In this document: piece by piece, positions 1 through 52,693 of the stretch
Layout: every line of letters begins with the position of its first letter
How positions within the stretch are numbered: the stretch's first letter is position 1
From: a virus
Virus record (IMG/VR): IMGVR_UViG_3300025834_000173
Direction: 5' to 3' (one strand)
DNA length: 64,000 nucleotides
Notes under the pieces: generated by a model
What the model was told of the DNA's origin: nothing
What the model saw: the letters and a program-made list of their open reading frames with translations, nothing else
Database searches by the model: none
Position numbers and translations under genes: made by a program

Positions 1-413
1 TCACCTAAACTATATTGCATACCGACCCTTATTTCTTGTGATAATATATCATTACTTACTCCTATTGATATATTAGCTTCTTTTTTCAATTTCAACCAGT
101 CTTCATTTAATAATGAACCATTTGATTGTAATGATTGTTCGAATTTTGTTTTATATCTATAATAAAATTCATCTTGTACATCTCTATAATACTGAGTTCC
201 TAATACTGTAGGTTCGCCACCGTGCCATATAAATTGTACGTTTTTAGTGTATTCTTCTAATAATTTTAATGTGTGTTTTAATAACTCATCAGGAGCCCTC
301 ATGTCTCCTACTCTTTCTCTATTTGACCTATCATGGCAATACTCACATTTAAAATTGCAAGCATGTGTAGGTTTAAATAATATAGAAAAATTCTCTCTTC
401 TTTTTTCGCTCAT
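1..413 (-). CDS. Radical SAM enzyme (anaerobic sulfatase maturase/SPASM-like), N-terminal part, truncated by the window edge
   Basis: Not in the ORF track; manually translated from the ATG at 413 (RBS GAGGAG): MSEKRRENFSILFKPTHACNFKCEYCHDR...IWHGGEPTVLG...LQSNG. Contains CxxxCxxC and GGEP motifs; the frame stays open to position 1. Confidence 0.9.
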   Translation of the reverse strand, partial: MSEKRRENFSILFKPTHACNFKCEYCHDRSNRERVGDMRAPDELLKHTLKLLEEYTKNVQFIWHGGEPTVLGTQYYRDVQDEFYYRYKTKFEQSLQSNGSLLNEDWLKLKKEANISIGVSNDILSQEIRVGMQYSLG

Positions 414-431
414 TTTTGTCTCCTCATAATT

Positions 432-1514
432 TTATGACTCTATACCTAAATATTTTATTTCTCCGTTTTCAACTACGTTTATATAATAAAAATTATTGCC
501 TATATATGAATAAGGAGTTCTTCCTTTTTTCCCCCCATAACCACCTAGCCCCACTACATTTTGTTTGTTTCCTTTATTAAATGGATATGAAGACGAATCG
601 TACCTGTCTTCAATTATGTTTTTACTTTTTTTCAATTTCAACACTATATTGTTTACAGCATCTTCTCTACTTATATTTCGTAAATCTAATTCTATTTTAT
701 CACTTGATATTTTGTACTCAGGATGTTTTCTAATTATTTTAAGTATTGTTTTATTTATATTGTATCTTAATTTAAAATCTTCTTCACTCTTATCTTCTAA
801 GAATCCTGAACTGTCAGTATAATTAAACATCTCCCATTTAGGATATATTGTTATAGTATCAGGTTTAATATTTTCAATCATTATTTTTATGTCGTTTGCA
901 GTATTTTTTAATGACGCTTTCACGTCTACTGTCTCACCTGCATATGCAGACTGTTCCGTAAATGTCAGTAAATCACAGTTTGTACTTATTCCATGTTCTC
1001 TACAGAAGTCAATTATACTTCTTAGTTTTTCTTGTTTAACAGGTATCCTGTTATTTTTAAATATTAAATCATTATTAAATGATTGAACACCCATTGATAT
1101 TTGATTAAACCCATATTCACTAAGTATCTCAAGTTTTTCTTTACTCAATATTGTTGGATTAGCTTCAAATTTCTTACTCTCTATCTTATCTATATTAGGT
1201 ATAAGGTCAAAAACTTTTCTCATTGTATGTGTATCCATCATTCCAGAAGTCCCTCCACCTAAATACAATGTATCAAATATCTTTAATCTTAGTATGTCAC
1301 TCTGCTGTTCGAAAAATTTAGGTAATATGTCATCAAAATATTCTTTGTATTCTTTTGAATTTACTCTAGATGCTATTTTACCTAAATTACAAAACTTACA
1401 TATTGAAATACAAAAAGGAACATCTATATATAAATTAAATGTATTTTTCTTATTGAATAATTCTTTCCATTTAGCTTTAATCTCTTCTATACTGTATTCT
1501 TTATATTCTAACAT
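432..1514 (-). CDS. HemN-like radical SAM protein (possible class C methyltransferase)
   Basis: DVPFCISICKFC motif, YLGGGT, FEANP, ISMGVQSF: the HemN/coproporphyrinogen oxidase-like pattern. The start overlaps the upstream stop. Confidence 0.8.
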   Translation of the reverse strand: MLEYKEYSIEEIKAKWKELFNKKNTFNLYIDVPFCISICKFCNLGKIASRVNSKEYKEYFDDILPKFFEQQSDILRLKIFDTLYLGGGTSGMMDTHTMRKVFDLIPNIDKIESKKFEANPTILSKEKLEILSEYGFNQISMGVQSFNNDLIFKNNRIPVKQEKLRSIIDFCREHGISTNCDLLTFTEQSAYAGETVDVKASLKNTANDIKIMIENIKPDTITIYPKWEMFNYTDSSGFLEDKSEEDFKLRYNINKTILKIIRKHPEYKISSDKIELDLRNISREDAVNNIVLKLKKSKNIIEDRYDSSSYPFNKGNKQNVVGLGGYGGKKGRTPYSYIGNNFYYINVVENGEIKYLGIES

Positions 1515-2551
1515 CCATTTAACCTCTCTATGAAAGATTTAACTGCTAAGGCTTTTTCAGTCGTAAATGATAAACACCCACCATTACATTGTTTATTTGT
1601 ACTTAATTTACAATCATTACACAAGAAGTTTATCTGCATGTTATAACATATTCCATCAATTCCATGTTTAAAATATTTATAAATTTCCATCATATCTTTG
1701 TAATCAAACATATTTACTTTTGCTAATCTTGACATTGCAAAACATCTTATAACTTGTAAATCTACTGTAACATCTAATACAGGTTCACAACCATATCTTT
1801 TATGATAATCAGTTCCACCTTTAGTTTCGTAAAATGCTAATAAACCTTCAAATCTTTCCTTATATTGTTCCATTACACAAACAGGTATTTTGGAGCAATC
1901 AAATGTTATCCTATCTACTAAATCTTTTGCTGTCTCCAATAATGTTAGTAATGACTCTGCCATTTCATTGTAATATACCAAATTTAATTTCTTATCTGAA
2001 TTTATGTTAGGAGCTACTGTAGATACTCTTAACACCCTTTCCTTTTTATTCTCTATATTCTGAAATATGTCTACTATATGAGACCAATCAGTATTTGTAT
2101 CAAATATATTAACGCCTATAGTCATCTTATCAGGACAAAGTTTATTAAATTTTATTATCTGCTCTCTAGCACTTTCAAATCTAACTTTTCCTAACTCTTC
2201 TCCAAATTGTCTCATCAACTCTTTTGGAGAATTGTAATTTAATAATATACCAACTTTTGAAGATGCTAGTACGTTCAGATGTTCCATAAGGCTACTTCCG
2301 TTCGTAAATACTGTTACATATTTTATGCCTTCTCTTTTTATTAAGTATTCTACTATTTTGTCGAATTCAGGATGTAATGTTGGTTCTCCACCTATCAACC
2401 CTACTCCATCGCTAGTTTGTAACAGAAAGTCTGTTACCCTTTTAAAATCTTCTAAACTCATTAATTTGTTGTTTCCATGTTCTGTAAATTCCTCTGCAAA
2501 ACAGTATTTACATTTATAATTACATGATTCTAATATTGCTACGTTTGACAT
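1508..2551 (-). CDS. Radical SAM enzyme with C-terminal SPASM/twitch-type Cys cluster
   Basis: CNYKCKYC, IGGEPTLHP, FTNG; C-terminal CEP...RCF...CNDC...CNGGC. Confidence 0.85.
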   Translation of the reverse strand: MSNVAILESCNYKCKYCFAEEFTEHGNNKLMSLEDFKRVTDFLLQTSDGVGLIGGEPTLHPEFDKIVEYLIKREGIKYVTVFTNGSSLMEHLNVLASSKVGILLNYNSPKELMRQFGEELGKVRFESAREQIIKFNKLCPDKMTIGVNIFDTNTDWSHIVDIFQNIENKKERVLRVSTVAPNINSDKKLNLVYYNEMAESLLTLLETAKDLVDRITFDCSKIPVCVMEQYKERFEGLLAFYETKGGTDYHKRYGCEPVLDVTVDLQVIRCFAMSRLAKVNMFDYKDMMEIYKYFKHGIDGICYNMQINFLCNDCKLSTNKQCNGGCLSFTTEKALAVKSFIERLNGC

Positions 2552-4651
2552 TTATTGTCCCCTTCCCAGTTCTCTCACTATATCATCTATACTATCTTTT
2601 GATTTATCTGTTATTTCATTTAATTGTTGTACTGACATTCTATGAAATTCTACGTATCTCTGCATTGAACTATAATTTTTATATGCTACTATTATATTAT
2701 ATTTAATGTGTAACATAAACTTTTTATATATAAACCAGTTCAGTTTTAAAATCTCATAGCATGTTATTTTACTATCTTCATCTTCGCACACATAATCTAT
2801 ATGATTTTCTATGTCATATATGTATTTAGGTTTATTTGATTCTATTATATAGTCATAAGTATAATTATCAATTCTTTTTTGTAATCCTCTGTATTCAAAT
2901 CTACTCTGTGCTTTTTTGATATATTTAGTGTAAACTTTATCTTTGTTATCTAATTGTTCTTTAGTTTTAAAAGTTTTATCTATCTTATTTAGCTCTCTTT
3001 TACTAAGTATTTTAAATATGTCATCTTCAAATGTATTTATAAACTGAGTATAACCGTTTTCTCCTTGTCTACCTGCTCTACCCCTTACTTGTAAATCAAT
3101 TCTTTTACTCATAAAATGTCCTAAGCACAGTACTATTAAACCCTTTTCTTTATTTATACTTTTCAGTATTATATCTGTTCCTCTACCCATTAATTGAGTT
3201 GATATTGTTACTGTTCCAGGTACTCCAACTTTGTCTATGATTTTGTCTTCTATTTCGTATGGTGTACTGTTATTAAATATAACTGCCTTCACATCATTAA
3301 AATATACAAAATTGTATAGCTTCTCGGCGTCAAAGTCAGACTGGCACACTATCAGTATTGGATTCTTGTTATAATTATTTTTTATTGTTTTAAGAGTGTA
3401 TTCGAAAGACTGTTCTTTTGTTTCAAACATCATGTCACTGAAATCTTCTCTTTGTGACTGTTTATTTTCAGGTATTATAGATATTCCTTTTCCAAATAAT
3501 AAATTCAATTCTTGTTCTATATCTTTTACTGTTCCACTAACGCCTACAAGATTGTTATACATATTGAAAAATATTTGATATGTCATATTATTCTCTAAAC
3601 GCATTTCTAATTGTTCGAATAAATTTTCCTTAACATGTATAGCTGCTTGTATATCTGATTCATATGATGAATTGTATAACAATCTACCGTTATTAATGTT
3701 TATCAATACTATATGACCATCTTTTACTGTGTATTCTATATCTTTTTTGTAAAATAACAATACTTTTAAATAACTTATTATATTTAAGTATATTTCAGAT
3801 ATCTCAAAAGTATCTGTTTTATTATGCAAAAATATGTTATGTATTAATTCAAATGTTTCATCAGATATACATAGAAATTTTGAACTTTCTTCATAGTAAT
3901 AATCATAAACTATTTCTTTAGATTTTAAGTCCCACATCATTTTTTCCATGTTTGTTAATTCATCTTTACTCATTTTATACCCTTGCATATCTTCTACGAA
4001 ACCTTTTACAGTTAGTAAGTTACTGTAATCTACTTCCCCTATAACTTGTCCACTTACTGAAAAACTTGATGTTGCGTTATCCACTAATACATAGTCTATC
4101 TCGTCTATAATTACATTTTCAAATGTAAATTTAAAATCTTTGTTATACTCATATTCTAAATAATCAAATATCAAGGATTCGCATGAGCTATACACAACAT
4201 CATTGTCATAAATATTGTTTATGTCTTTTCTACTGTCTCTATCATTAAAAACAGATTTAATATTTAAAAACTCAAATATATCCTTTGAGTTTTCATAATC
4301 TCTTTTTGAAAGATAGTCGTTAGTTGTTGCTATGTGTATTTTTTCATTTCTTCCTTTTATTAATACATAACACAGTATAACTAATGTCTTGCCTTCTCCT
4401 GTTTTCATTTCAGTTACATAACCTTTATTCAATGAAACTACAGCCCTTAACTGAGATTTAAATAATTTTATACCCTTAAACTTATGTATAGTAAAATATA
4501 CACCCGCTATAGATTCACATATATCTTTAGAATTAAACATGTCTATTATTTCAGTGTCACTTATATTTTTAGTATTAAATTTATCAACATTTCTTAATAT
4601 TTTATTTACAGTTTTATCTAGCTTTTTAATTCTAAACGTATTCTCTATCAC
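2552..4651 (-). CDS. SecA-like ATPase (short accessory paralogue)
   Basis: SecA signature motifs MKTGEGKT, TTNDYLSKRD, IIDEIDYVLVD, STQLMGRGTDI, QVRGRAGRQG. 699 aa with a shortened C-terminus and no Cys-rich tail; GTG start with GGGAGG RBS. Confidence 0.85.
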   Translation of the reverse strand: MIENTFRIKKLDKTVNKILRNVDKFNTKNISDTEIIDMFNSKDICESIAGVYFTIHKFKGIKLFKSQLRAVVSLNKGYVTEMKTGEGKTLVILCYVLIKGRNEKIHIATTNDYLSKRDYENSKDIFEFLNIKSVFNDRDSRKDINNIYDNDVVYSSCESLIFDYLEYEYNKDFKFTFENVIIDEIDYVLVDNATSSFSVSGQVIGEVDYSNLLTVKGFVEDMQGYKMSKDELTNMEKMMWDLKSKEIVYDYYYEESSKFLCISDETFELIHNIFLHNKTDTFEISEIYLNIISYLKVLLFYKKDIEYTVKDGHIVLININNGRLLYNSSYESDIQAAIHVKENLFEQLEMRLENNMTYQIFFNMYNNLVGVSGTVKDIEQELNLLFGKGISIIPENKQSQREDFSDMMFETKEQSFEYTLKTIKNNYNKNPILIVCQSDFDAEKLYNFVYFNDVKAVIFNNSTPYEIEDKIIDKVGVPGTVTISTQLMGRGTDIILKSINKEKGLIVLCLGHFMSKRIDLQVRGRAGRQGENGYTQFINTFEDDIFKILSKRELNKIDKTFKTKEQLDNKDKVYTKYIKKAQSRFEYRGLQKRIDNYTYDYIIESNKPKYIYDIENHIDYVCEDEDSKITCYEILKLNWFIYKKFMLHIKYNIIVAYKNYSSMQRYVEFHRMSVQQLNEITDKSKDSIDDIVRELGRGQ

Positions 4652-4669
4652 GTCTGCCTCCCACTAATG

Positions 4670-6421
4670 TTATTTTCCTGCCTCTATTCTTAATCTATTT
4701 ATAGTATTTATAAATTCTTTATATCTAGTTAAAAATTCAGGTATACATAAATTAAATTCACCTTGACCACCTCTGTCAAAAAATCCGAATGTCTCTATTA
4801 CTTTATCAGTATCCTTTAATATGTCAAAGCATTTTTTAATTTCTTCTTGACTATATACATTTTCAAGTAAGCTTATGACGATTTCTAAATTTAAGTTTTT
4901 AATTTTAAACGAGTATATATGAACTAAACACCTTAATAAACTTATTCCTTTTAAGTTATCTCCACTATAGTAATCTATAAAATAATTTGCATATTTTATA
5001 AACCCTTCAATATCCTCTACCTTTAATAACATAACTGCCATAAATAAATCATGTATATTATATATTTTTCCATCTTCAAAATCTCTACAGTTATTAACAC
5101 CTAATATGTCACATATTTTACCTGTTATTATTCTTGTTTTGAATAATTTATCTAATACATTGTCAGCATGCTCAAATGTTAAGTCTTTACTTCCTATGTT
5201 CTTATATATGTCCAGTTCATTTTTAAAATAATCACCGTTGTCTATTAATTTTATGAACCCAAGTTCAAATGATAATAATTTATAACAGTTCATACCTAAG
5301 AACGAATTATCAAAATAGTATATGTCTATATTTTGATTTTTTAATACTTTCATTATATTATTTAGTATCTCAACATTATTTTCACCTAAATTTAAGTTTC
5401 CTTCAAATTCATATGAATTTTCTAATCCGCACAAGAATTCTTCTGGCATATGTGCTATTCCTGCTATTTCCATATTTACCATATTATTTTTACTAGATGC
5501 ATCTAATGGATTAAATATGTCTAAAAATGGCATATCATTAATTTCTCTATTCTGTAATATTTCAGTTAAGCATCTTTCAAGTGCTATAGAATAATTATAA
5601 GATGCTCCAAATGAAGCTCTATACTTTTTCTTTAACTTATCAAATATCACTATACCTGCTATAGGTATTTTAAGTCCTAATGAACAATCTCTTACTACCA
5701 CCTTATATCTACCATTTTCATAGTTTTCAATTTTGTCTATTATTTTGTTGCTGTATGTATCTTCGTAAATTTCTCTAGGAAGTATTGGAGGAATTATTTT
5801 GTTTTCTATTATGTAATTATGTGAATATCTTTCAAATAGTTCAAATATTCCTTGACATAGTGCTTCTTCCTTTGTATTTCCTGCACACATACCATTTGTA
5901 TCGTTTATTAAATATGATAAAGGAACAAAACATTTATAATTATCTTTTATATTTGTTACTTCTACACAAATACTTTTGTCTTCTTCTATATATACTTCAT
6001 CAAAATATTTGAATGACTCTAGAAATTTCTTTCCATAATTTAATTTACATTTTCCTATGTACCCATCTAGTTTTGATACTTCTTTAAAACTAAGTATTTT
6101 CTCATTTGATGATATATATTTACCACTGTATTCATTTAATTTAAATCTCTCTAAATTTAACAACACTGCTAAATTAGATATTCTCTCAATCATTTCTGCA
6201 AATGCAGATGCCTCACTATATTCTTCTGTTATACCTTTACCATTTGTTTTATGTACTCTATATTCTGGAAATTCTTTAAAAAATATCTCTAATCCATGAG
6301 AATATGTATCTACACCACTGTATATTAAATTTATTTTATATGTTAAACCTAACTCTTCTAGTATATTCTTAGCACTATCTACTGTTTCTCTTGGTGTTAT
6401 CTCTTTTCCCCTTATATCCAT
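4670..6421 (-). CDS. YcaO-family ATP-dependent backbone-modifying enzyme
   Basis: TNGKG...ASAFAEMIER, DTNGMCAGNTKEEALCQGIFELFER, LERCLTEILQ motifs; no Pro-rich C-terminus. Confidence 0.88.
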   Translation of the reverse strand: MDIRGKEITPRETVDSAKNILEELGLTYKINLIYSGVDTYSHGLEIFFKEFPEYRVHKTNGKGITEEYSEASAFAEMIERISNLAVLLNLERFKLNEYSGKYISSNEKILSFKEVSKLDGYIGKCKLNYGKKFLESFKYFDEVYIEEDKSICVEVTNIKDNYKCFVPLSYLINDTNGMCAGNTKEEALCQGIFELFERYSHNYIIENKIIPPILPREIYEDTYSNKIIDKIENYENGRYKVVVRDCSLGLKIPIAGIVIFDKLKKKYRASFGASYNYSIALERCLTEILQNREINDMPFLDIFNPLDASSKNNMVNMEIAGIAHMPEEFLCGLENSYEFEGNLNLGENNVEILNNIMKVLKNQNIDIYYFDNSFLGMNCYKLLSFELGFIKLIDNGDYFKNELDIYKNIGSKDLTFEHADNVLDKLFKTRIITGKICDILGVNNCRDFEDGKIYNIHDLFMAVMLLKVEDIEGFIKYANYFIDYYSGDNLKGISLLRCLVHIYSFKIKNLNLEIVISLLENVYSQEEIKKCFDILKDTDKVIETFGFFDRGGQGEFNLCIPEFLTRYKEFINTINRLRIEAGK

Positions 6422-6624: not shown

Positions 6625-7437
6625 TTATTTATAATGTAAATAAGGTAATGGGTCTATCTTTGTTCGTTCATTTATTATTTCAAAATGTACATGAGGTCCT
6701 GTTGACATTCCTGTACTTCCCATCTTTGCTATAAGTTGTCCTTGCTGTACTTTATCTCCTGTTCTAACTAATATACCATCATAATCTATATGTCCGTAAA
6801 GAGTAAATATTCCGTTTCCGTGCATCAATATTATTGCATTTCCATAACTTTGGTTATATTGTGTGAATATAACTATACCATCTTCTGATGCATAAATATT
6901 TGTTCCTCTCTTATCTGCAAAGTCAGTTCCACCATGAAAATCAGATGTTCCAAATATAGGATGTGTTCTTTTTCCAAACCCAGAAGATACATTATGTATA
7001 TTAACAGGATATATAAAATTTAATGTATCTACTTTCATATCTTTATTTTGTTCTACCCACTTATCTACTACCTTTAATGTTGACTGTTCTTGACTATCAA
7101 ATAGTGTTGCATAAAACTCTTTACTCTTTTCCATTATCTCTATTGATAAAAACTTATTCTCTTGTGCATCTGTTAATTTTTTAAGTGACTCTTTATATAG
7201 TTTGGCTTGATTTCTGTCTAGTGCAGTTCCAAATATTAAATCTTCTTTTGTACAGTATTTATTATCTATCTGGTCTACTATATTATTTATTCTATTTATT
7301 TCTTTATCGTATTCCTCTATTTCTTTGTATATCCCCTCTATAATAGTATCAAAATCAGTATCTATTGTACTTCCATAGACTACACTTGTACTTAAAATCA
7401 ATGTCACTATTAATAACGTACATATTCTTTTTATCAT
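6625..7437 (-). CDS. Secreted M23-family peptidoglycan peptidase with N-terminal coiled coil
   Basis: Signal peptide; HGGTD, YGHID and STGPHVHFEI zinc-binding motifs. Confidence 0.9.
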   Translation of the reverse strand: MIKRICTLLIVTLILSTSVVYGSTIDTDFDTIIEGIYKEIEEYDKEINRINNIVDQIDNKYCTKEDLIFGTALDRNQAKLYKESLKKLTDAQENKFLSIEIMEKSKEFYATLFDSQEQSTLKVVDKWVEQNKDMKVDTLNFIYPVNIHNVSSGFGKRTHPIFGTSDFHGGTDFADKRGTNIYASEDGIVIFTQYNQSYGNAIILMHGNGIFTLYGHIDYDGILVRTGDKVQQGQLIAKMGSTGMSTGPHVHFEIINERTKIDPLPYLHYK

Positions 7438-7596: not shown

Positions 7597-8265
7597 TTAT
7601 TTAGTTTGTATTATTAATATTATATCATCTATTCTTTCTACCCCTGACGCATCTTTACCTTCTCCAAATTCTCTAGTCGTATATAACTCCGACTCATCTG
7701 TTTGGTCAGGACCCATACTCTGTACTATAACTATTCCGTGTCCGAGTATTTTATTTATATCACTTGTTCCAGTTTCTCTAGTATGGAATGTTAATATGTA
7801 TTTATTACCCCAAGGGTCTTTTTTATACATTGTTTTAACCTTAAAGTAATCATATATCCATGTATCAGGTGTACTGTCATCGTCTGTGTCAATTTGAATT
7901 TTATGAGGATTGTCTCTTCCTATCTCATCTTCAATTACTTGTATTGATGCTAAATCTAGTGTATTACCTATATACATTTCATTCAATGTATCTACAAATT
8001 CATATGTCCATTTTACATAAGTCTCGTCTTCTTCTAAAGGAGTGTTTTGTACTTCTGAATCATCTACTGTCATGGTTATTGCTCCATAATCTACTACGTA
8101 ATTATTTAAATCTAGTGCAAATGTTCTTAATTCTGCTTCTACTGTGTCTATTTTACTATTTAAGGTATATTTCGAAAGTCTAGGCACTAATATAACCATC
8201 AGTATTCCTACCAGAGCCACTACTGAAATTATTTCTAACATCGTAAATGCTTTTTTATTTATCAT
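7597..8265 (-). CDS. Type IV pilin-like protein
   Basis: Class III signal peptide KKA|FTMLE followed by a hydrophobic helix; DPWGNKY (GspG-like) motif. Confidence 0.88.
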   Translation of the reverse strand: MINKKAFTMLEIISVVALVGILMVILVPRLSKYTLNSKIDTVEAELRTFALDLNNYVVDYGAITMTVDDSEVQNTPLEEDETYVKWTYEFVDTLNEMYIGNTLDLASIQVIEDEIGRDNPHKIQIDTDDDSTPDTWIYDYFKVKTMYKKDPWGNKYILTFHTRETGTSDINKILGHGIVIVQSMGPDQTDESELYTTREFGEGKDASGVERIDDIILIIQTK

Positions 8266-9227
8266 TTGTTACCTCCATTTGGAATTATTTTGTAATCCAA
8301 TATGTTTACTTCCATATTATCTACATTTATCCAAGTTTCTGCTGTACCAAAATCTGCTATACCAAAATCTTCAGTTGCCCCTATGCTATGTTTGAATAAA
8401 TTTCTTTCAAAGTATATGTTATCTACTTCAAATAGTGCAACTATTTTTCCTCCCACATATGTTACTGTAGATTCAAATAATAGTTTATTTAATTTACCCT
8501 TTCTTGTTGAGTTATCATTTAATCCCCAATTATCTAAGTCTACCCAAAATTGTGTGTCTAAACACATATTCGATATTCTCAAACCTTCTTTAGTTGAAGG
8601 ATATATAAGTCTTAATTCACTATATAAGTTTTTTATAAAACTTTTCATGCCTAAGTCTTTTTCTTTCCTTAAAAATTCCATAGACTCTATGGCTATGTCC
8701 GTAAATACTATATGCCTTTCTCTGTACTCACTTTCAGGTATCCACTCTATACTTCCATCATTTCCAATATCTACAGGAACTAATTCTCCATTGTATCCAT
8801 CTATTATATTACTGAATCCATCAAGTATGTTATCCCCATTTTCATCTACAAATACTATTCCCTCAGTACTTCCTGTTCCTTCTACTATCTCTATGTCATA
8901 TCCATCAAATAAATAAACACTTGTTTGAGCTTCATATCCTGTTGCTACTTCAGTAGTTCCGTCTCCTGCAACATAATCATATTCTCCATCTATTCTTTTG
9001 AACATTACAGTTAATTTAGTATTCTCTAACTTTGTTTTAAGTAACGACCTCTGTATATCTACAAGTGATTCAGCTGAATACTGTTCTTTAATTTTGTTGT
9101 ACATTACCACACTTTGATATCTATTTGCCACTACTATTGCTGATGTAATATATATTGAAGTTAATATTAATATAACTACCATAAATGCAAATATAATGTT
9201 TCCTTGTCTATTTAGTTTCCATTTCAT
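8262..9227 (-). CDS. Minor pilin, PilX/ComGG-like (no Glu5)
   Basis: RQG|NIIFAF plus hydrophobic helix; lies within the pilin operon. Confidence 0.6.
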   Translation of the reverse strand: MKWKLNRQGNIIFAFMVVILILTSIYITSAIVVANRYQSVVMYNKIKEQYSAESLVDIQRSLLKTKLENTKLTVMFKRIDGEYDYVAGDGTTEVATGYEAQTSVYLFDGYDIEIVEGTGSTEGIVFVDENGDNILDGFSNIIDGYNGELVPVDIGNDGSIEWIPESEYRERHIVFTDIAIESMEFLRKEKDLGMKSFIKNLYSELRLIYPSTKEGLRISNMCLDTQFWVDLDNWGLNDNSTRKGKLNKLLFESTVTYVGGKIVALFEVDNIYFERNLFKHSIGATEDFGIADFGTAETWINVDNMEVNILDYKIIPNGGNK

Positions 9228-9246
9228 ACCCCTACCGCCTTCATGG

Positions 9247-10152
9247 TTATTCTATAACTTTACACTTTAATATAGGTTTATTTAATCTATTTGAAAGTGT
9301 TATATTTACCCTACTTCCTTCTTTTGCCCCATTATATTTTTCTATAACTAAGTTTATTTTTAATTGTTTAAAGTTGAAATACAATTCGTCTTCTTCTAAT
9401 AATTCTACTATTTCTTCTCTTGATACGTTTCCAACACCTTTTTCAATTTGTAATGCTTCAAAATTAGTTTGAAAGTCTGTTCCCTCTGTATATCCTAAAT
9501 ATACTAATTCGCTGTCCGTAAATTCAGTTGTATTATCTAGCACATAGTCTATTTCATCATGACCATACCCCTCTGTTGTTCCGTATGAATTATACCTTTC
9601 AATATCATTTAAATCTGTCTCATAATCTTCATAATACACTAAACTTGCTATAAATGAACCTATAGGAATATCATTATCATCTTCTATTCTATTATTTTTA
9701 GTTGGGCATATATACTTACCATCAACGTCTATTTCAGGTATTGTTCCCAAATCATTTTCATAACTATTCTTTTCTCCGTCATAATAGAATGTAGTGTCTT
9801 TTGTATCAAAGTTCTTTACTATTCTATATGATACGTATTTATATGGAGTTGATGTTCCAGGACTTGAAAATAATCTAGTTGTTTCTGTTGATGCCCCTAT
9901 ATTATTTAGTAATAAAGTTCCATTTGCATCTCTATACTCTTTATCTGACATAAATATCTTTTCTGCTGATTGAAAATCCCTCTGTAAAAATAACATACTT
10001 TCAGCTAAGTCTGACCTAGTTGTTGCTAGTTTCATCTCTGAAAAATTTGCCTGTGTTGTGAATTGAATTAATGATACACCTATACCTATCAATATACTTA
10101 ATATATACATAGATATTATTGTTTCCATTACCGTAAAACCTTTTCTATTCAT
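9247..10152 (-). CDS. Minor type IV pilin
   Basis: RKG|FTVME prepilin motif plus hydrophobic helix. Confidence 0.85.
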   Translation of the reverse strand: MNRKGFTVMETIISMYILSILIGIGVSLIQFTTQANFSEMKLATTRSDLAESMLFLQRDFQSAEKIFMSDKEYRDANGTLLLNNIGASTETTRLFSSPGTSTPYKYVSYRIVKNFDTKDTTFYYDGEKNSYENDLGTIPEIDVDGKYICPTKNNRIEDDNDIPIGSFIASLVYYEDYETDLNDIERYNSYGTTEGYGHDEIDYVLDNTTEFTDSELVYLGYTEGTDFQTNFEALQIEKGVGNVSREEIVELLEEDELYFNFKQLKINLVIEKYNGAKEGSRVNITLSNRLNKPILKCKVIE

Positions 10153-11108
10153 TAATTCATCTCCGTTCTTTGAGGTGTTATGAACATTGCCATCTCTGAA
10201 TCTTTTGTTTCTTTAAATTCATAAACTGTCTTTACTATTATTTTGTATATTGATGAATTGTTATTACTACTTATTAAATCATTCTTATATTCATATTCCA
10301 ATAATATATCATTAGGTTCTTCTGAAATATTTACTTTATATATTACTTTTAAACCTTTACCCTTTACATCAGGTAAAGTTAGTTCATAGTATGAATTAAC
10401 TACCTGTATATTTCCACTACCCATGTCAATATTATTTATTACGTCCTCAATATTTTTATAAGCTGATATATCTGCACAATATCCACTCACATTAGGAACT
10501 TTACATATTCTATCATATAATTTCATATCTACCTTATTTTCATCTGTTTCATTTAGTTTTATTTCTGATAAAAACCTACTGCTATATTTTACATAATCTG
10601 ATTTATTTACATCTACAATACTAGCACCATCATATCTCTGTATATTTTCTAAAAATGCTTTCTTATCCTCAGCTTCTGTAAATTCTCTATTTATTCCTAA
10701 ATCAATTGTTTCTACTGTAACATCTGTTGTATAATAAGGTCCTGTATCACTATTCTCAGGAGTTATTGATTTTGTATATTTCTCTTTTATAAATTTTATT
10801 AAAAACTCTTCCTCTGTAATACCAATATCTACTGCTTCTTCTAAATCAAATATGCCATTACTGTCTTTGTCTACTTTTTTCATTTCATCGTAAATTGTCC
10901 CATTGTAGAAGTTTGATTTTATTTCCTCTGTTACTGTTGTATTTAATGCTAATGTCTTTATTCTTATATCTTCGTTTTTTGATGCTACGTTTAATCTATC
11001 AAAGAATGTTAATGACATGTACATTGCTACACCGAGTATTATCATTGTCATTATTGATTCCATCATCGTAAATCCTGACCTATTTAACTTTCTTGTTTTA
11101 TACCCCAT
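10152..11108 (-). CDS. Minor type IV pilin
   Basis: RSG|FTMME prepilin motif plus hydrophobic helix. Confidence 0.85.
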   Translation of the reverse strand: MGYKTRKLNRSGFTMMESIMTMIILGVAMYMSLTFFDRLNVASKNEDIRIKTLALNTTVTEEIKSNFYNGTIYDEMKKVDKDSNGIFDLEEAVDIGITEEEFLIKFIKEKYTKSITPENSDTGPYYTTDVTVETIDLGINREFTEAEDKKAFLENIQRYDGASIVDVNKSDYVKYSSRFLSEIKLNETDENKVDMKLYDRICKVPNVSGYCADISAYKNIEDVINNIDMGSGNIQVVNSYYELTLPDVKGKGLKVIYKVNISEEPNDILLEYEYKNDLISSNNNSSIYKIIVKTVYEFKETKDSEMAMFITPQRTEMN

Positions 11109-11142
11109 ATTTATTCACCACCTTATTTACCCTCTTATAAAA

Positions 11143-11176
11143 AATTTACCTAGCAATTAATTTTGCTAGGTAAATT
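11143..11176 (-). terminator. Intrinsic terminator between major and minor pilin genes
   Basis: 14-bp perfect stem AATTTACCTAGCAA/TTGCTAGGTAAATT with a 6-nt loop and a T-run on the minus strand. Confidence 0.8.
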
Positions 11177-11190
11177 GCTTTACTTATTTC

Positions 11191-11874
11191 TTATTTATTT
11201 ACACAAGTCATATTTTTCACAGCTGCAACTGTTAAATAGTCAGGAACGTTTGTATCAGCTATAGTATTAGGTAACCAAATACCGTCAGCTCCAACTACTG
11301 TTGCAGTGTCGTCTTCGCTGAATCCTAATTTTTGACCTGTTCCCAATGTTATAACTTGTATATCGCCTTTAAAACCTGCGTTACATTTAGTAATTTTACC
11401 ATCTTTGTAAACTGCTAATGTTAAGAAGTCAGCCCTATCAGTTGTTAATGACTTACCACCTGAATAAACTAAAACTTTTTCTTCTATTCCAGATACTGCT
11501 CCATCATCACGACTAATTATTAAGCCATACTTTGCACCAAATGGGTCTTGTGCTTTTGTTTCAAACACACCAGGTACAACTGTAGCTGGTTGACCTATAG
11601 CAAAATAATCATCTATATAAGTGTTAAACTTAGTTGCAAATAATGCATCTGTAGTGCCAGGTAATCTTGAGTTCTCAGTGAATATTGTCTCAATAGAGTC
11701 TGAAAAATCTTTGAATTCTTTATTAACTCCTAACTCCTTAGCTTTGTCTGTTCCACTTGTTAAACGTGGCATTAATACCACCATCAAAATACCTAATACT
11801 ACAACTACTGCTATAACTTCTAACATTGTGAAACCTTTTCTATTGAGTTTACTATTTTTCCAAATTCTATCCAT
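11191..11874 (-). CDS. pilA: Major type IV pilin, copy 1
   Basis: RKG|FTMLEVIAVVVVLGILMVVLMPRL; paralogue of 11887-12672; followed by a strong terminator. Confidence 0.85.
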   Translation of the reverse strand: MDRIWKNSKLNRKGFTMLEVIAVVVVLGILMVVLMPRLTSGTDKAKELGVNKEFKDFSDSIETIFTENSRLPGTTDALFATKFNTYIDDYFAIGQPATVVPGVFETKAQDPFGAKYGLIISRDDGAVSGIEEKVLVYSGGKSLTTDRADFLTLAVYKDGKITKCNAGFKGDIQVITLGTGQKLGFSEDDTATVVGADGIWLPNTIADTNVPDYLTVAAVKNMTCVNK

Positions 11875-11886
11875 TTCTTCCTCCCG

Positions 11887-12672
11887 TTATTTATTTACAC
11901 AAATCATAGTTCTTATGGATGCTTCTGTTAAATAAGCTGCTACTGCTACATGATTAGGAAGGTTTATTCCATCTGTACTTGCTGTGCCTATTGTTTGAAC
12001 TGCTGCTGTGTCATCTTCTGAAAAACCCAATGCAATTTCAGCCGTATCTGCAACATCGTTTCCATTAGTATCTATTACTATTTTTTGTATATCACCTTTA
12101 AAACCTGCATTACATTTTGTTATTTTTCCATCTTTGTAAACTGCTAATGTTAAGTAGTCAGCTTTATTAGTTGTTAATGATTTACCTCTTGAGTAAACTA
12201 GTACTTTTTCAAGTATTCCAGAAGTTGTTCCACTGTCTCTACTAGTTATAACACCATATTTTGCCCCGAATGGGTCTTCTGCGTCTGTTGCATAATGTCC
12301 ACCTAAATCAGCTGTAACTGCTGCTGTAGCTGTTAAGTTTAATGATTCAGCATTAGCTGTGGCATTTGCCACATGTATCTTAAAGTAATCATCGATATAA
12401 GTATTAAATTTAGCTACAAAAACTGCATTTTTAGAAGCTGTTATGTCTGTTGCACCAGGTAATCTTGAGTTCTCAGTGAATATTGTCTCAATAGAGTCTG
12501 AAAAATCTTTGAATTCTTTATTAACTCCTAACTCCTTAGCTTTGTCTGTTCCACTTGTTAATCTCGGCATCAATACTACCATTAGAATTCCAAGTACGAC
12601 TACAACTGCTATAACTTCTAACATTGTGAAACCCTTTCTATTAAGGCTCCTTTTTTTCATAATTTTATTCAT
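11887..12672 (-). CDS. pilA: Major type IV pilin, copy 2
   Basis: First 59 mature residues identical to copy 1; variable central and C-terminal segments. Confidence 0.85.
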   Translation of the reverse strand: MNKIMKKRSLNRKGFTMLEVIAVVVVLGILMVVLMPRLTSGTDKAKELGVNKEFKDFSDSIETIFTENSRLPGATDITASKNAVFVAKFNTYIDDYFKIHVANATANAESLNLTATAAVTADLGGHYATDAEDPFGAKYGVITSRDSGTTSGILEKVLVYSRGKSLTTNKADYLTLAVYKDGKITKCNAGFKGDIQKIVIDTNGNDVADTAEIALGFSEDDTAAVQTIGTASTDGINLPNHVAVAAYLTEASIRTMICVNK

Positions 12673-12896
12673 TTCTTCCTCCGTGTTATTAAAATGTTTT
12701 GGTTTTATTTTTTTTGCTAAAGTTATACTTTAGACTTTTCTAGTTTTTCTTCCTTAAAAGAAAAGTTTATCTAACAACAGTTAACTTTAAATTAAAAGTT
12801 CCTCGCCCCCTTCTAAATGTAAACATACCCCACCTTAACAACCTAAACTTATATAAACTTCCGTAAAATATTTAAGTGTTAATTTGTACATATACT

Positions 12897-14132
12897 TTAT
12901 ATTTGTTCCATTAATGAGAACATAGGCAAGTACATTGCCAACATTACAAATCCTAATACTGCCATTATTAATAACATTAATATAGGTTCTATTGCTTTCG
13001 TAAGTGTGGTTACTTTAACTCTAAATTCTTTTTCCATCTGTATAGATGTTTTATATAGCATCTCAAACAATTTTCCTGATATTACTCCAACTTCACTCAG
13101 CTTTATTAATTTAGCTGGGAACATTTGAGTATCACCCATTGCTTGTCCGAGAGTTCTACCTTTATCTCTTACTATATCTCTAACTTCTGTAACTGCCTGC
13201 TTCATTACGTAATTTCCCATTGTATTTATTGATATTTCTACAGCTTCTGTAACAGTTATGCCTGTTTCCAATAACATTGCAACTGTACTTGAGAAATTTA
13301 TATAAGACATTTCTTTTATGAAAAAACCAACTATAGGCATTTTTATAAATGCCATATCCATATATTTTCTTGCCTTTGTCTTTTTATACAGTATTACAGG
13401 TGTTGTAGGAACAAATATCAGTATCAATAGCATTGTAATTTTACTATTATTTACAAAATCTGATAGTGTCAATAACATCAATGTTGGTGTAGGTAATTCA
13501 GCACCCATTTCAATAAACACTTCAGACAATACAGGTATTAAGAATATAACCATAAATGCCATAGCGCCTATAAGTGCTACTATCATCAATGCAGGATATG
13601 TTAATGCACCCCTTACTGCGCCCTTAAAATCATCGTCTCTAGCCATTTGTTCAGCTAACTTTTTAAATGTTGTCTCTAAGTTACCAGATGTTTCACCTGC
13701 TTTTAATTGATAAATATATGTTCCCTGTGGTATCCCTTTAGCTTGTTCTAAAGCTAAAGAGAACCCAAGTCCACCTAATACCTTTTCGTGAATCTCACCT
13801 ATTGCTTTTTTCAATCCATAATGTGCTGTATTTTCTTTTGCTATTTCTAGTGCGTCGGTTAAAGTTAATCCTGAACTAACTAAAAATGATAAGTTATCAA
13901 ATAATCCTACTAAATCTTTTTTAACTATTTTTGTCTTTTTATTAAATGAAATACTTAACTCTTGTTTACAATATACTATCTTTTCTCCAGGTTTAAATAA
14001 CTTTCTTATAGCATTATTTCTATTGTATGCTTCTATAGAACCCTTATATAATTTACCATCTTTTTCTTGTATCTTATAATTAAACTTCTTAAGTTCTTTT
14101 ACCTTAGGTTTTTTATTGAATAATTTTTCCAT
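12897..14132 (-). CDS. pilC: Type IV pilus platform protein (PilC/GspF family)
   Basis: LVSSGLTLTDAL, AGETSGNL, ALTYP and KAIEP repeats; three TM segments. Confidence 0.92.
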   Translation of the reverse strand: MEKLFNKKPKVKELKKFNYKIQEKDGKLYKGSIEAYNRNNAIRKLFKPGEKIVYCKQELSISFNKKTKIVKKDLVGLFDNLSFLVSSGLTLTDALEIAKENTAHYGLKKAIGEIHEKVLGGLGFSLALEQAKGIPQGTYIYQLKAGETSGNLETTFKKLAEQMARDDDFKGAVRGALTYPALMIVALIGAMAFMVIFLIPVLSEVFIEMGAELPTPTLMLLTLSDFVNNSKITMLLILIFVPTTPVILYKKTKARKYMDMAFIKMPIVGFFIKEMSYINFSSTVAMLLETGITVTEAVEISINTMGNYVMKQAVTEVRDIVRDKGRTLGQAMGDTQMFPAKLIKLSEVGVISGKLFEMLYKTSIQMEKEFRVKVTTLTKAIEPILMLLIMAVLGFVMLAMYLPMFSLMEQI

Positions 14133-14143
14133 ATTTCATCTCC

Positions 14144-15697
14144 CTAATTAACTGGCTTATAATCTAAATTATGTTTTTCTATAGTTTCTAAATAATCTAT
14201 AGCAACTTCAATTTTAAACCCGTCTTTATCTTCACCGCATTCTATTTTTAAGGGATTCCCTGTCTTACCTTTTAAATTAACTTCTTTAGTATTAAATTTA
14301 ATTATTGCTGAATAATCTATATCTTTCACTCCATCTACATTTAACTGTATATAACCATCTTTATAGTTTTTTTCATCTACACTCACTGTAAAATTCTTAT
14401 TTATTACTGATTCATACTCAGGTTTGTTAGATTTTAAGAACTCAAGATATTCTTCTAATTTAAATGTATTTCCACCGTCAGTTTTTAATTTTTCTACATA
14501 ACCCTCTACTTTTTTTATCTCACTATCTAAGAATGTTTCTGATAAATTAATTAATTCTTTTATCTCTTTCTTTGATAATGAAGCACCATCAGTGTTTATT
14601 ACATACCTGTAGTTGTCATCTTTGTCAGCAATTGCCTCTGCAAAATTGTATTCTGTAGCAGGATTCTTAAACATTACAAACTCTATGGTAAAGTGCATTC
14701 TCATTTTATCTAATTTATTACTTGCTTGTTTTACTTCAGGCACATCTTTGTCTCCTTCTTCATTAACGGATAAATCTATCTCAGGTATAATAATTGTATT
14801 TCCTTTATTACCTTCGTTTTTTCCATTTATAAGTAAGTCTAACATTTTATCTTGTTCAAATATATTTTCACTGTTTACATCTTTATCATTTAACTGTTTT
14901 ACTTTACTATTCAATAGATTTAATAATGTATATTGGGTACTTAAATCAGTTACTTGATTTATTGCTTCTTCAATTATATTTTTATTACTTGTGCCAGTCA
15001 TACCGTTTATAGCTTTTTGTATGTTAGACACCTGTTCTTGTAACTTTAATCTTTCTTCTTCTTTTTTCTGTATTTCCAACTCTTTTTGGTCTGATATACT
15101 CAAGTTACTTTTATCGTCAACAACCTTTGTTTTATCGTCTGTTACTTCAGCCCAATTATTCTTGTTTATGTCATCTATACTACGTATTAACCATTCTTTA
15201 TCATCGTTTCTTCTAATTGATATGTTTGATATATTATATCCTATACCCAACCCCTCAATTTCATTTACAATACTTTGTAAATCAGTAAGTAATCCGTATA
15301 AGTCCACTTCAAATTTTGCTCTGTATGAACCATTCTTTTCCTCTACACCCATGTCATTAAATCTTCGTAAATCCACACCATATTTGTTTGTTTTTTCACC
15401 TAAAAATATAAGAAAGTCCTGTCTATTTATAGTTTTTCCATTTCCGTCATTTATCATACTGTCTACTTGAGCATTTACTTTATCTAATGACTCCTGAGTC
15501 AGTGCTTTTTGCTGTTTTAACCCCTCTATATTAGCTACTGAATCTTCACTAGATATAGTCGTCTGTAATTGTGTTTCTTTATCTATTAAAGGAGTATATA
15601 CATACGAATAAGCTATATATGTGACTACTACAAATATCAGTAATAGTACTATTAATTTCTCTCTGGCACCTAAATTTTTAAACTGATTCATAATCAT
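14144..15697 (-). CDS. PilO-like assembly protein with large insertion and C-terminal extension
   Basis: REKLIVLLLIFVVV N-terminal TM, coiled coil, ferredoxin-like segment; positioned after pilN. Confidence 0.6.
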   Translation of the reverse strand: MIMNQFKNLGAREKLIVLLLIFVVVTYIAYSYVYTPLIDKETQLQTTISSEDSVANIEGLKQQKALTQESLDKVNAQVDSMINDGNGKTINRQDFLIFLGEKTNKYGVDLRRFNDMGVEEKNGSYRAKFEVDLYGLLTDLQSIVNEIEGLGIGYNISNISIRRNDDKEWLIRSIDDINKNNWAEVTDDKTKVVDDKSNLSISDQKELEIQKKEEERLKLQEQVSNIQKAINGMTGTSNKNIIEEAINQVTDLSTQYTLLNLLNSKVKQLNDKDVNSENIFEQDKMLDLLINGKNEGNKGNTIIIPEIDLSVNEEGDKDVPEVKQASNKLDKMRMHFTIEFVMFKNPATEYNFAEAIADKDDNYRYVINTDGASLSKKEIKELINLSETFLDSEIKKVEGYVEKLKTDGGNTFKLEEYLEFLKSNKPEYESVINKNFTVSVDEKNYKDGYIQLNVDGVKDIDYSAIIKFNTKEVNLKGKTGNPLKIECGEDKDGFKIEVAIDYLETIEKHNLDYKPVN

Positions 15698-15703
15698 ATC
15701 TCC

Positions 15704-16408
15704 TTAACTAAATTTCAATCTGAATTCAAACACATTTTGTCTGACTCCATCTATTGTTTTTTCTTCTATTGCTGTAATATTTGCTGATTTAACGTAAGGT
15801 AACACACTCACTTCGTAAAACAACTCTGCTATAGCACTATTATCTTGACTGTATCCTCTAATTATAATGTCTTGCAATGCCCCATCTGATACCACACCTG
15901 TGTAAAATCCCTCAGGCAATAATTTAGGGTCTACTGTTCCAATTATATTACCGTTAGCATCCTCTATCTCTGCATTTGAGTTAACCACTATTTTTTTATT
16001 AGCATCATTAGGGTCGGGTATAGTTGTTTTCTGCAACTCTGTTTTTGTATCTGGTGTTTTTAACATGTCTTCTGTATCTAATGATACTAATATAACTTCA
16101 TCAGGAAGCACATTAACTATTAAGTTCGTAAACTCGTAAAATGGAAATCTTATTTCTTCTATATTTTGAAGTACTGTTATTTGAGTTTGTTCCTCAATTT
16201 TCATACCATCTATAGATGATTTTAATTGTTTCACTTCTGCGTTATTTTCTTGTATTCCGCTTAACTCAAAGTATGACTTAGCTGTTTTTGCTCCCTGTAT
16301 TCCTATTAGTGCTACTAAAAATACTGAAATAACTATTAGCCCCTTAATTAAATTAGCAATAAGAAATTTATTCTTATCCTCTAATGGTATTAAATTTATT
16401 TTCCTCAT
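15704..16408 (-). CDS. pilN: PilN-like assembly protein
   Basis: The true start is probably MRKINLIP (ATG at 16408, RBS GGGGG). INLIP + TM + coiled coil + IIIRGYS pattern. Confidence 0.75.
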   Translation of the reverse strand: MRKINLIPLEDKNKFLIANLIKGLIVISVFLVALIGIQGAKTAKSYFELSGIQENNAEVKQLKSSIDGMKIEEQTQITVLQNIEEIRFPFYEFTNLIVNVLPDEVILVSLDTEDMLKTPDTKTELQKTTIPDPNDANKKIVVNSNAEIEDANGNIIGTVDPKLLPEGFYTGVVSDGALQDIIIRGYSQDNSAIAELFYEVSVLPYVKSANITAIEEKTIDGVRQNVFEFRLKFS

Positions 16409-16410
16409 TT

Positions 16411-17523: not shown

Positions 17524-17529
17524 CGACCT

Positions 17530-19200: not shown

Positions 19201-19234
19201 TAGTTGCCTCCTTAACTACGTATTATCTTATACT

Positions 19235-20374: not shown

Positions 20375-20391
20375 TGTATAGTCTAACCTCC

Positions 20392-21621: not shown

Positions 21622-21635
21622 ATTTCCTCCTATGT

Positions 21636-24802: not shown

Positions 24803-24922
24803 AATTTTGCGTACCTATCCTTAACAAATTTAATATTTATTTTCACAAATTATATCTACATTTTTGACACTTAATTTAGTTATTATTCATTTAAATAGTG
24901 CTAAAAAGTACCATATAATTTA

Positions 24923-26509: not shown

Positions 26510-26527
26510 ATTTCACCTCGTTATAGT

Positions 26528-27430: not shown

Positions 27431-27437
27431 ACTTCTA

Positions 27438-28103: not shown

Positions 28104-28123
28104 AAATTACCTCCTTATCTTGT

Positions 28124-29620: not shown

Positions 29621-29624
29621 TATC

Positions 29625-30419: not shown

Positions 30420-30448
30420 CGTTTTCCTCCGTTTTCCTCTGCTTTATT

Positions 30449-52179: not shown

Positions 52180-52193
52180 ATCCTCATCACCAC

Positions 52194-52674: not shown

Positions 52675-52693
52675 ACTTTTGTTATTCACTTAT

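Follow-up and report, generated by a model that had tools for sequence, protein, structure and literature searches.

A ten-gene operon at the window edge

The stretch analysed here, 64,000 nucleotides (nt) of viral DNA from IMG/VR record IMGVR_UViG_3300025834_000173 (hereafter the window), begins with a minus-strand operon encoding, in order of transcription, a YcaO protein, a short paralogue of the ATPase SecA and three radical S-adenosylmethionine (SAM) enzymes, the last cut off by the left edge (Table 1). As a first-pass annotation of the window had described, the five genes are co-directional and tightly packed, with gaps of 0–18 nt and one 7-nt overlap. Its expectation that the operon runs past the left edge was borne out by an exact-protein look-up, which retrieved two metagenome contigs that match the window at 100% identity over 11,514 nt (L001) and 6,497 nt (L002; L numbers are our labels for contigs and loci) and extend leftwards. 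On these, the HemN-like radical SAM gene is followed by genes for a SPASM radical SAM enzyme, an 83-amino-acid (aa) protein, a radical SAM enzyme of 321 aa, a 263-aa protein, a fifth radical SAM enzyme and a large protein. The best explanation of the five window genes is that they form the front half of a ten-gene operon; the complete operon holds five radical SAM genes where three had been counted, and a CX3CX2C motif is present in all five. The annotation had also seen no precursor, which stands for the window itself; the identical contigs place the gene for the likely substrate some 4 kb beyond the left edge.

All five window genes exceed the Pfam gathering scores, and none of the five reaches an NCBIfam equivalog cut-off. 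The operon region has a G+C content of about 27% and a strongly negative GC skew. A promoter and terminator scan of the interval between YcaO and the preceding gene, which encodes an M23 peptidase, found no terminator-like site and fewer promoter-like sites than in shuffled sequences. Public runs holding window positions 432–6421 are all DNA runs labelled glacier metagenome (four of four, 2017).

A giant His-X-Asp/Asn repeat protein

The likely substrate is a giant surface protein encoded at the operon end. Its N terminus has no signal-peptide-like core (the strongest 15-residue hydrophobic window scores 0.3–1.1) and carries a family-conserved leader of about 45–50 residues, with a consensus of roughly FA..A.F....F..WK......E....QT.D.T, that leads directly into the first H.D/N motif. 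Between residues 52 and 214, Asp or Asn stands at position +2 of every His (25 of 25), mostly with a six-residue period; among 2,000 shuffles, H-x-[D/N] occurred 5.7 times on average and 12 times at most, and the same residues contain no H-x-S motif. The roughly 330 residues after the repeats are conserved and were modelled as tandem immunoglobulin (Ig)/fibronectin type III (Fn3)-like sandwiches with a predicted local distance difference test score (pLDDT) of 84.7. A fold search with this model returned generic stalks of Gram-positive surface proteins at low template-modelling (TM) scores (C5a peptidase stalk, Cpe0147 and BspA), suggesting no enzymatic function, and OmpL47/Big-like repeats follow. 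The gene is still uninterrupted after 1,311 codons on contig L011, and the C terminus of the window-lineage protein lies beyond the assembly.

An exhaustive HMMER search of 1.84 billion proteins recovered about 60 representatives of this family, nearly all with the same layout of leader, repeats and domain. Members span 500 to more than 2,000 aa and contain 20–45 H-x-[D/N] motifs. Pooled over the family, 82% of 1,093 His residues ahead of the domain have Asp or Asn at +2, and 8% have Gln. In a few members, Tyr-X-[DNQR] replaces the His motif (37 of 40 Tyr residues in P0272, 32 of 38 in P0274, 50 of 60 in P0298 and 29 of 30 in P0300), a substitution in keeping with an enzyme motif of the form aromatic-X-X3. 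The Alkaliphilus transvaalensis orthologue, at 2,073 aa, has S-layer homology (SLH) domains at its C-terminal end and is therefore wall-anchored and extracellular. The family is rare and patchy among the genomes searched: among 399 scored Clostridia species genomes, the domain was found in one, the query's own host.

A conserved triad

Genes for the short SecA, the SPASM radical SAM enzyme and the repeat protein are neighbours in all 12 loci for which sufficient sequence was available; these come from both cultured bacteria and metagenomes. In the search from the large protein, eight loci (L009, L015, L016, L018, L019, L021, L022 and L023) carry the short SecA and SPASM genes directly upstream. 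The search from the short SecA subfamily, at 33–35% identity, led to three others that carry a SPASM enzyme and a leader-bearing HxD/N protein: L026, from Wukongibacter baidiensis, and L027 and L028, from metagenomes or metagenome-assembled genomes. The motif holds at 29 of 30, 32 of 36 and 22 of 23 His residues in these three, respectively. The metagenome scan used a six-sequence alignment, the 36-sequence family alignment being too diverse. Pairwise identities between triad loci are only 32–40%, so the triad is not one recent element copied around, and in a second lineage (L007/L008) the operon combination recurs at 56–64% protein identity. The gene combination is not chance; co-occurrence in other genomes, which the first-pass annotation had named as a check on its reading, is what we found.

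The simplest versions belong to Thermoanaerobacterium-type loci (L009, from Thermoanaerobacterium sp. RBIITD; L015, from T. butyriciformans; L018, L019 and L022), in which short SecA, a secreted 279-aa protein, the SPASM enzyme and the large protein are encoded. TadZ-like or TadZABC genes come next in L009, L018, L019 and L022; L015 stood outside that comparison. The A. transvaalensis locus (L016) is fuller, with short SecA, HemN-like enzyme, SPASM enzyme, a 66-aa protein, a 321-type radical SAM enzyme, a 263-type protein, an intact fifth radical SAM enzyme and the large protein, and L021 and L023 have intermediate gene sets that include a 347-type radical SAM enzyme. The large gene frequently overlaps its neighbour by stop and start codons. 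The system does not centre on YcaO, which most loci lack and which was undetectable in the whole genomes of two hosts.

The SPASM enzyme

The SPASM radical SAM enzyme is present in every locus that has a large-protein gene. At full length, the enzyme truncated by the window edge is a true SPASM protein (PF13186, 23.9 bits against a threshold of 21.5; TIGR04085, 46.1 against 27), as had been called; the 347-aa enzyme, given the same label, has no Pfam SPASM match. A profile of the SPASM family matches the anaerobic sulfatase-maturating enzyme (anSME) structure 4k36 over its full length at 3.8e-49. Next among the NCBIfam matches, none of which reaches its cut-off, come DynA and three cyclophane-forming enzymes, AmcB, GrrM and YhhB. 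Against the models of the three-residue cyclophane-forming enzyme (3-CyFE) families (XyeB, GrrM, FxsB, YhhB and AmcB), the scores were 90.7 against a required 425 for AmcB, 80.5 against 310 for GrrM and 65.4 against 445 for YhhB. By these scores, the enzyme is related to 3-CyFE synthases and falls outside every curated family. It also has a conserved, family-specific C-terminal extension of about 120 aa.

The enzyme anSME abstracts a Cβ hydrogen. Taken together, an aromatic-X-X3 motif, a leader and an anSME/3-CyFE-type enzyme point to leader-guided abstraction of a Cβ hydrogen at Asp/Asn and crosslinking to His, a chemistry known from His-type triceptides and from dynobactin. We infer that the H-x-[D/N] repeats are the radical SAM substrate, and by analogy the products are probably triceptide-like His-to-Asx crosslinks.

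The SecA paralogue

The short SecA-like protein belongs to the SecA superfamily, with an NBD1/NBD2 motor into which a preprotein cross-linking domain (PPXD) is inserted; all its Pfam scores lie above gathering (SecA_DEAD, 156 bits; P-loop_SecA, 98.4; SecA_PP_bind, 40.3). Its AlphaFold2 model (pLDDT 84.4) has Bacillus subtilis SecA, including SecY-engaged forms, as best Foldseek match (query-normalized TM score, TMq, 0.74–0.78), and also matches the SecA2 proteins of Mycobacterium tuberculosis (4uaq) and Clostridioides difficile. Alignment with canonical SecAs and the model indicate that motor and PPXD clamp are kept, as are the long scaffold helix and an aromatic-tipped two-helix finger. In the alignment the whole helical wing domain is deleted and the zinc tail is absent, and the protein has no PF07516 or PF02810 match and no CPCGSGKKYKNCHG-type C-terminal tail; the Alkaliphilus short SecA retains a weak wing/scaffold match. 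No NCBIfam cut-off was reached, the best match being PRK09200 (318 bits against 862) and the SecA2 models scoring 224–279 against 725–1,100.

Both cultured-host genomes (G001 and G002) encode a separate housekeeping SecA of about 900 aa and a single SecY, which indicates an arrangement of the SecA2-only type. No Asp accessory proteins turned up, although no family search was aimed at them. Radical SAM chemistry takes place in the cytoplasm, yet the large protein is extracellular and lacks a signal peptide; the co-conserved SecA paralogue is therefore most simply explained as a dedicated export motor. By analogy with SecA2, it would export the large protein through the housekeeping SecYEG.

A proposed pathway and its alternatives

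On balance we think it somewhat probable that the ten-gene operon matures and exports one giant cell-surface protein by the following steps. In the cytoplasm, the SPASM enzyme, which resembles anSME, DynA and triceptide maturases, would recognize the leader of about 45 residues, abstract a Cβ hydrogen from the Asp or Asn at position 3 of every motif and link this carbon to the His at position 1, giving a three-residue crosslink of the His-type, triceptide-like kind. In the window lineage, YcaO would add ATP-dependent backbone or Asx chemistry, the HemN-like enzyme would probably methylate, and two or three further radical SAM enzymes, with the 83-aa and 263-aa helper proteins, would introduce additional modifications. 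The short SecA paralogue, a SecA2-like motor, would then thread the leader-bearing protein through the cell's single SecYEG, and the type IV filament genes and the M23 peptidase would act with the large protein at the cell surface. Of the earlier interpretation, the idea that a SecA paralogue is physically tied to a pathway dedicated to post-translational modification is supported.

Several observations weigh against this pathway. With the wing domain and C-terminal tail missing, a purely cytoplasmic role as unfoldase or chaperone is possible for the SecA-like protein. No second SecY was found in genomes G001 and G002, and nothing SecY-like among the called genes of the loci. Export would require some 25 small macrocycles per domain to pass SecYEG, although rings of three residues are small. 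The enzyme anSME, the best structural relative of the SPASM enzyme, oxidises rather than crosslinks, and all the radical SAM enzymes and YcaO lie far below NCBIfam equivalog cut-offs, so that chemistry is not transferable from the named enzymes. In the ten-gene operon, Pfam and NCBIfam searches found no gene for an E1-like, ThiF or TfuA protein or for a flavin dehydrogenase, and the presence of YcaO shows no clean correlation with the residue at X2. The TAG codon that breaks the fifth radical SAM gene in the window lineage may leave one or more steps without function there.

The first two of these points also speak for an alternative that we consider unlikely, namely that the SecA-like protein, instead of exporting, works in the cytoplasm as an ATP-driven clamp or unfoldase (the first-pass annotation had also allowed for SecA feeding substrate to the enzymes), which would bind the leader, pass the repeats one motif after another to the radical SAM enzymes and so replace recognition by a RiPP (peptide made by the ribosome and modified after translation) recognition element (RRE) or PqqD-type domain, with export by another route such as the type IV filament machinery. 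Such a role would agree with the loss of both the helical wing and the C-terminal zinc tail, with the lack of an RRE or PqqD domain in any cluster protein by Pfam and NCBIfam, and with the Tad or type IV pilus genes that flank the cluster in most loci. However, the protein keeps both its PPXD clamp and the two-helix finger, the element that enters SecY, the model is closest to SecY-engaged SecA, and an extracellular substrate without a signal peptide needs some dedicated export step. The SecA2-only systems of M. tuberculosis, C. difficile and Bacillus anthracis, moreover, export proteins, S-layer proteins among them, without a SecY2.

Unmodified His/Asp/Asn-rich segments can bind Ni, Zn or Cu, and pilus genes are close in most loci, so the repeat region could be a metal-binding or low-complexity stalk, with the enzymes acting on pilins, a cofactor or something else. 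We judge this improbable. The motif holds a strict register of three residues (25 of 25 His in the window lineage and 82% family-wide), which, together with the Tyr variants, fits an enzyme recognition motif of the form aromatic-X-X3 better than simple metal sites; the spacing between the conserved leader and the first motif is fixed, as is typical of enzyme-guided maturation; and adjacency to the large-protein gene holds in 12 of 12 loci, whereas the type of pilus varies (type IVa or Tad) or is out of view (L028).

A conventional small-peptide RiPP pathway, with the 83-aa or another small open reading frame (ORF) as precursor, SecA in place of the usual ATP-binding cassette (ABC) exporter and the large gene a mere neighbour, is highly improbable: YcaO with radical SAM enzymes is a typical RiPP enzyme set, and the 83-aa ORF lies between two radical SAM genes, is conserved in L007 and has 57–68-aa counterparts in L016, L023 and L026, but it is absent from the Thermoanaerobacterium-type systems, L021, L027 and L028, which keep the SecA-like protein, the SPASM enzyme and the large protein, its variable centre has no core that is repeated or rich in Cys, Ser or Thr, it sits, whenever present, directly upstream of the 321-aa enzyme, as a helper subunit might (HxsD to HxsC in the HXS system discussed below), and the leader-plus-repeat signature expected of a substrate is on the large protein. 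The first-pass annotation had named a RiPP-like pathway with SecA in place of the ABC exporter among its options; with a partner of 500 to more than 2,000 aa for the SecA-like and SPASM proteins, that is probably not what the operon encodes.

Beyond export of one protein by the ten-gene operon, the loci may represent a new class of surface-protein biogenesis, in which, on mobile elements of anaerobic Firmicutes, leader-guided radical SAM stapling of dozens of His/Tyr-X-Asx motifs on a giant adhesin, with optional YcaO and methyl tailoring, is tied to a dedicated wing-less, SecA2-like motor that exports the product without a signal peptide, to act together with a type IV filament encoded alongside. 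This broader proposal is tentative, and we hold it with some doubt.

Lineage-variable enzymes and helper proteins

YcaO, the HemN-like enzyme and the extra radical SAM enzymes would be add-on tailoring functions that vary by lineage. YcaO itself scores 137.7 bits against PF02624 (threshold 25.7) and 103 against TIGR00702 (75.65). It has the stand-alone architecture of the Escherichia coli protein, and its ATP/Mg motifs (AEMIERIS, GNT..EA..QG..ELFERY and SFGAS..ALER..TE..Q.R) align with those of E. coli YcaO (4q84). As an azoline-forming, SagD-type cyclodehydratase it scores only 45.8 bits of the 219 required by TIGR03604. Close relatives were found only in L007/L008 and L013, and none in the complete host genomes G001 and G002, which carry the core system; such a distribution suggests a lineage-specific tailoring enzyme. 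Where the window has one YcaO gene before the SecA-like gene, L007 (81–5363) and L008 (77–5359) have three tandem paralogues of 583–584 aa that are 49–56% identical to it.

The HemN-like enzyme, with the motif CISICKFC, has HemW/HemN/ChuW-type NCBIfam matches below cut-off, and by sequence it matches the Protein Data Bank entries for HemN (1olt, 1.8e-13) and the methyltransferase NocN (9p2u, 1.3e-9); the analogy to NosN/TbtI-type thiopeptide enzymes made earlier goes no further than general family resemblance. It is an accessory gene, found also in L016, L021 and L023. Likewise accessory is the 347-aa enzyme (Pfam Radical_SAM, 66.2 bits), which has CNYKCKYC at residue 10, Cys residues at 302–326, weak HxsC4 and viperin/MoaA-like NCBIfam matches, all below cut-off, and orthologues in L021 and L023 at 30–33% identity. 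More generally, the radical SAM enzymes other than the SPASM and HemN-like ones are low-scoring MoaA/viperin/HxsC-like proteins.

Two small proteins accompany these enzymes. Neither Pfam nor NCBIfam gave a match to the 83/66-aa or the 263/278-aa proteins at E values of up to 10. The ESM Atlas model of the 263-aa protein is of low confidence (pLDDT 0.48), and its TIM-barrel-like neighbours are weak, with TM scores below 0.4. The other, of 57–83 aa with a basic AKLR..L segment, stands immediately upstream of the 321-type radical SAM gene whenever it is present; in the 83-aa version a basic, helix-like KAKAKLRRL segment is conserved. In L027 and L028, where a separate small ORF is missing, the 321-type enzymes are longer (393 and 465 aa); the small protein may be a helper subunit or a domain that can be fused.

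In the window lineage, the fifth radical SAM gene is interrupted in frame by TAG at L002:9706-9708, about 3.2 kb past the left edge of the window; the sister lineage L007 has TGG (Trp) at this codon, and the split gene (65-aa and 184-aa products) was also called on L001/L010, L011 and L012. Since code 11 leaves every window gene open, the TAG is probably a nonsense mutation rather than a recoded codon; a transfer RNA (tRNA) scan of the window found no tRNA genes and hence no suppressor.

The operons of the window and L007 lineages are about 75% identical in DNA. Midway through the fifth radical SAM gene the identity rises to 100%, TAG/TGG excepted, and it stays there until the L007 contig ends (L002:~9620-9840 against L007:~13200-13413). 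This jump suggests either that the downstream module is shared or was exchanged recently, or that a repeat common to two cassettes breaks the assemblies.

Type IV filaments and genomic context

Type IV filament genes adjoin most related loci. Those of the window form a complete-looking, type IVa pilus-like set directly upstream of the M23 and YcaO genes, and the order of minor pilin-like genes, M23 and YcaO is kept in a third lineage, L013; the M23 peptidase is possibly part of the same surface-assembly module. Tad-type genes flank L009/L018, L019/L022, L016 (via L024), L026 and L027. They lie downstream in the Thermoanaerobacterium-type loci; RcpC, TadZ and TadA are upstream in Alkaliphilus (L016); and prepilin peptidases accompany them in L026 and L027. 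Beside the L028 cluster are conjugative type IV secretion system genes, pilus genes being out of view there.

Several loci look like mobile elements; their gene content includes ParB, TraX, FtsK/SpoIIIE and SLT/M23 as well as genes for replication. The remainder of the window suggests a large mobile element or small genome: PHROGs and Pfam scans found no capsid or terminase gene there, and proteins outside the operon also match ParA and M23. Two regions, 22817–35170 and 50977–61558, encode replication and segregation functions (NAD-dependent ligase, ParB–HNH fusion, DnaB-like helicase, SNF2 helicase, ThyX and clamp loader), together with a 991-aa FtsK/SpoIIIE protein and an SLT-domain protein.

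Table 1 Coordinates of the operon genes, their neighbours and the small-protein genes of related loci
Feature	Sequence	Coordinates	Strand	Remarks
YcaO, 583 aa	Window	6421..4670	minus	Pfam YcaO
SecA-like paralogue, 699 aa	Window	4651..2552	minus	18-nt gap after YcaO
Radical SAM enzyme with C-terminal Cys cluster, 347 aa	Window	2551..1508	minus	No gap after SecA-like gene
HemN-like (class C-like) radical SAM enzyme, 360 aa	Window	1514..432	minus	7-nt overlap with 347-aa radical SAM gene
SPASM radical SAM enzyme, first 137 codons	Window	413..3 (span 1..413)	minus	18-nt gap; runs off edge
SPASM radical SAM enzyme, full length, 470 aa	L002	6085-7497		
83-aa protein	L002	7499-7750		Counterpart L007:11024-11275
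Fourth radical SAM enzyme, 321 aa				Between 83-aa and 263-aa protein genes
Fifth radical SAM enzyme, 316 codons	L002	9511-10461		CNVRCKFC motif; in-frame TAG
Small-protein genes	L016; L023; L026; L002; L007	6497-6697; 7122-7295; 14004-14210; 7499-7750; 11024-11275		
M23 peptidoglycan peptidase	Window	6625..7437	minus	Directly upstream of YcaO; Pfam Peptidase_M23, 109.9 bits
Type IV pilus gene set	Window	7597..22781	minus	Pilin-like genes, PilC, PilN, PilM, PilB, ParA-like ATPase, PilT

Implications

The component families are known, and precedents exist in exported repeat proteins matured by radical SAM enzymes and in SecA2 proteins dedicated to modified adhesins. We found no paper combining SecA with radical SAM or RiPP chemistry in the literature searched, and no NCBIfam model of the combination. 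This agrees with the first reading of the window, which recognized no characterized cluster. A system of SecA, radical SAM enzyme and repeat protein is rare and apparently undescribed, and there is a fair chance that it deserves a class of its own.

If the proposed pathway is right, a chemistry of peptide natural products, leader-guided radical SAM crosslinking with YcaO tailoring, would be applied on a large scale to a giant protein of structural or adhesive function, and the substrates of triceptide-type enzymes would extend from peptides to proteins of 500–2,000 aa. A SecA paralogue would have been recruited as dedicated exporter of a crosslinked giant protein, adding to the accessory Sec systems a third kind, in which radical SAM enzymes take the place of glycosyltransferases or S-layer export, and providing a directly testable case of exporting a covalently stapled polypeptide. 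The defined leader and short motif might perhaps be usable for stapling recombinant proteins. Experiments are feasible in cultured hosts with simpler versions: A. transvaalensis ATCC 700919, T. butyriciformans DSM 101588 and also W. baidiensis.

Comparison with known systems

The E. coli YcaO protein assists the radical SAM enzyme RimO, which carries out β-methylthiolation at Cβ of Asp89 in ribosomal protein S12. The window YcaO resembles it as a stand-alone protein of about 580 aa for which it is the best NCBIfam and Protein Data Bank match over nearly the full length, and the Asp target there recalls the invariant Asp/Asn of the motif here. However, the score is 149.7 bits against 700, at about 30% identity, and the cluster has no RimO-type methylthiotransferase; that YcaO acts in Asx modification is pure speculation by analogy.

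The accessory Sec systems (SecA2/SecY2, which serve serine-rich-repeat glycoproteins, and SecA2-only) likewise place a shorter second SecA beside a large repeat surface protein and its cytoplasmic modifying enzymes. Loss of the wing domain is common to the SecA-like protein and M. tuberculosis SecA2, and the host keeps its housekeeping SecA. Here, however, the modifiers are radical SAM and YcaO enzymes rather than glycosyltransferases, and the substrate has a RiPP-like leader and no signal peptide.

Another parallel is the HXS antiphage system (HxsA/B/C/D; Haft's His-Xaa-Ser system), whose effector is an exported protein with His-X-Ser repeats matured by radical SAM enzymes (PMC13128918). Both involve a protein rather than a small peptide, with tandem His-X-polar motifs and, as proposed here for the large protein, cytoplasmic maturation and then export and wall anchoring, and both use a SPASM-type radical SAM enzyme, a smaller one and a small helper protein. 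HxsC or HxsC4 is among the better NCBIfam matches of the 321-aa, 347-aa and fifth radical SAM enzymes. An HXS-like role, as a wall-anchored His array guarding DNA entry, would be compatible with the proposed pathway. The systems differ in that the motif here is H-x-[D/N] with no H-x-S, in 20–45 copies against five in HXS, on a substrate of 500 to more than 2,000 aa with Ig-like modules in Gram-positive, Clostridia-type hosts, and in that HXS has neither a dedicated SecA paralogue nor the YcaO of the window lineage. Scores against the Hxs models of NCBIfam are low (HxsB, 41.5 against 370; HxsC, 47.4 against 268; HxsC4, 54.2 against 500), with no HxsD match. The pair of small protein and 321-type enzyme recalls HxsD–HxsC, although no sequence match backs homology; the C terminus of the 66-aa protein, KLRDYLSRE, which we take to be like the HxsD signature, received no support from the NCBIfam model search.

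In chemistry a close parallel is offered by the triceptides, in which His-X-X crosslinks are established and His occupies position 1 of HAA, HNR and HTK motifs (PMC11499958). The maturases of triceptides, darobactin and dynobactin (HaaB, YhhB, HtkB, XyeB, GrrM, AmcB, DynA and DarE) share with our system an anSME-clade SPASM enzyme and a leader-bearing substrate with repeated aromatic-X-X3 motifs. In contrast to those pathways, the system described here lacks a protease and an ABC exporter and has a SecA paralogue; its SPASM enzyme has a unique C-terminal extension of about 120 aa, and its crosslink is a prediction. Where those pathways cleave off and release a peptide, the likely substrate here is a secreted protein of giant size.

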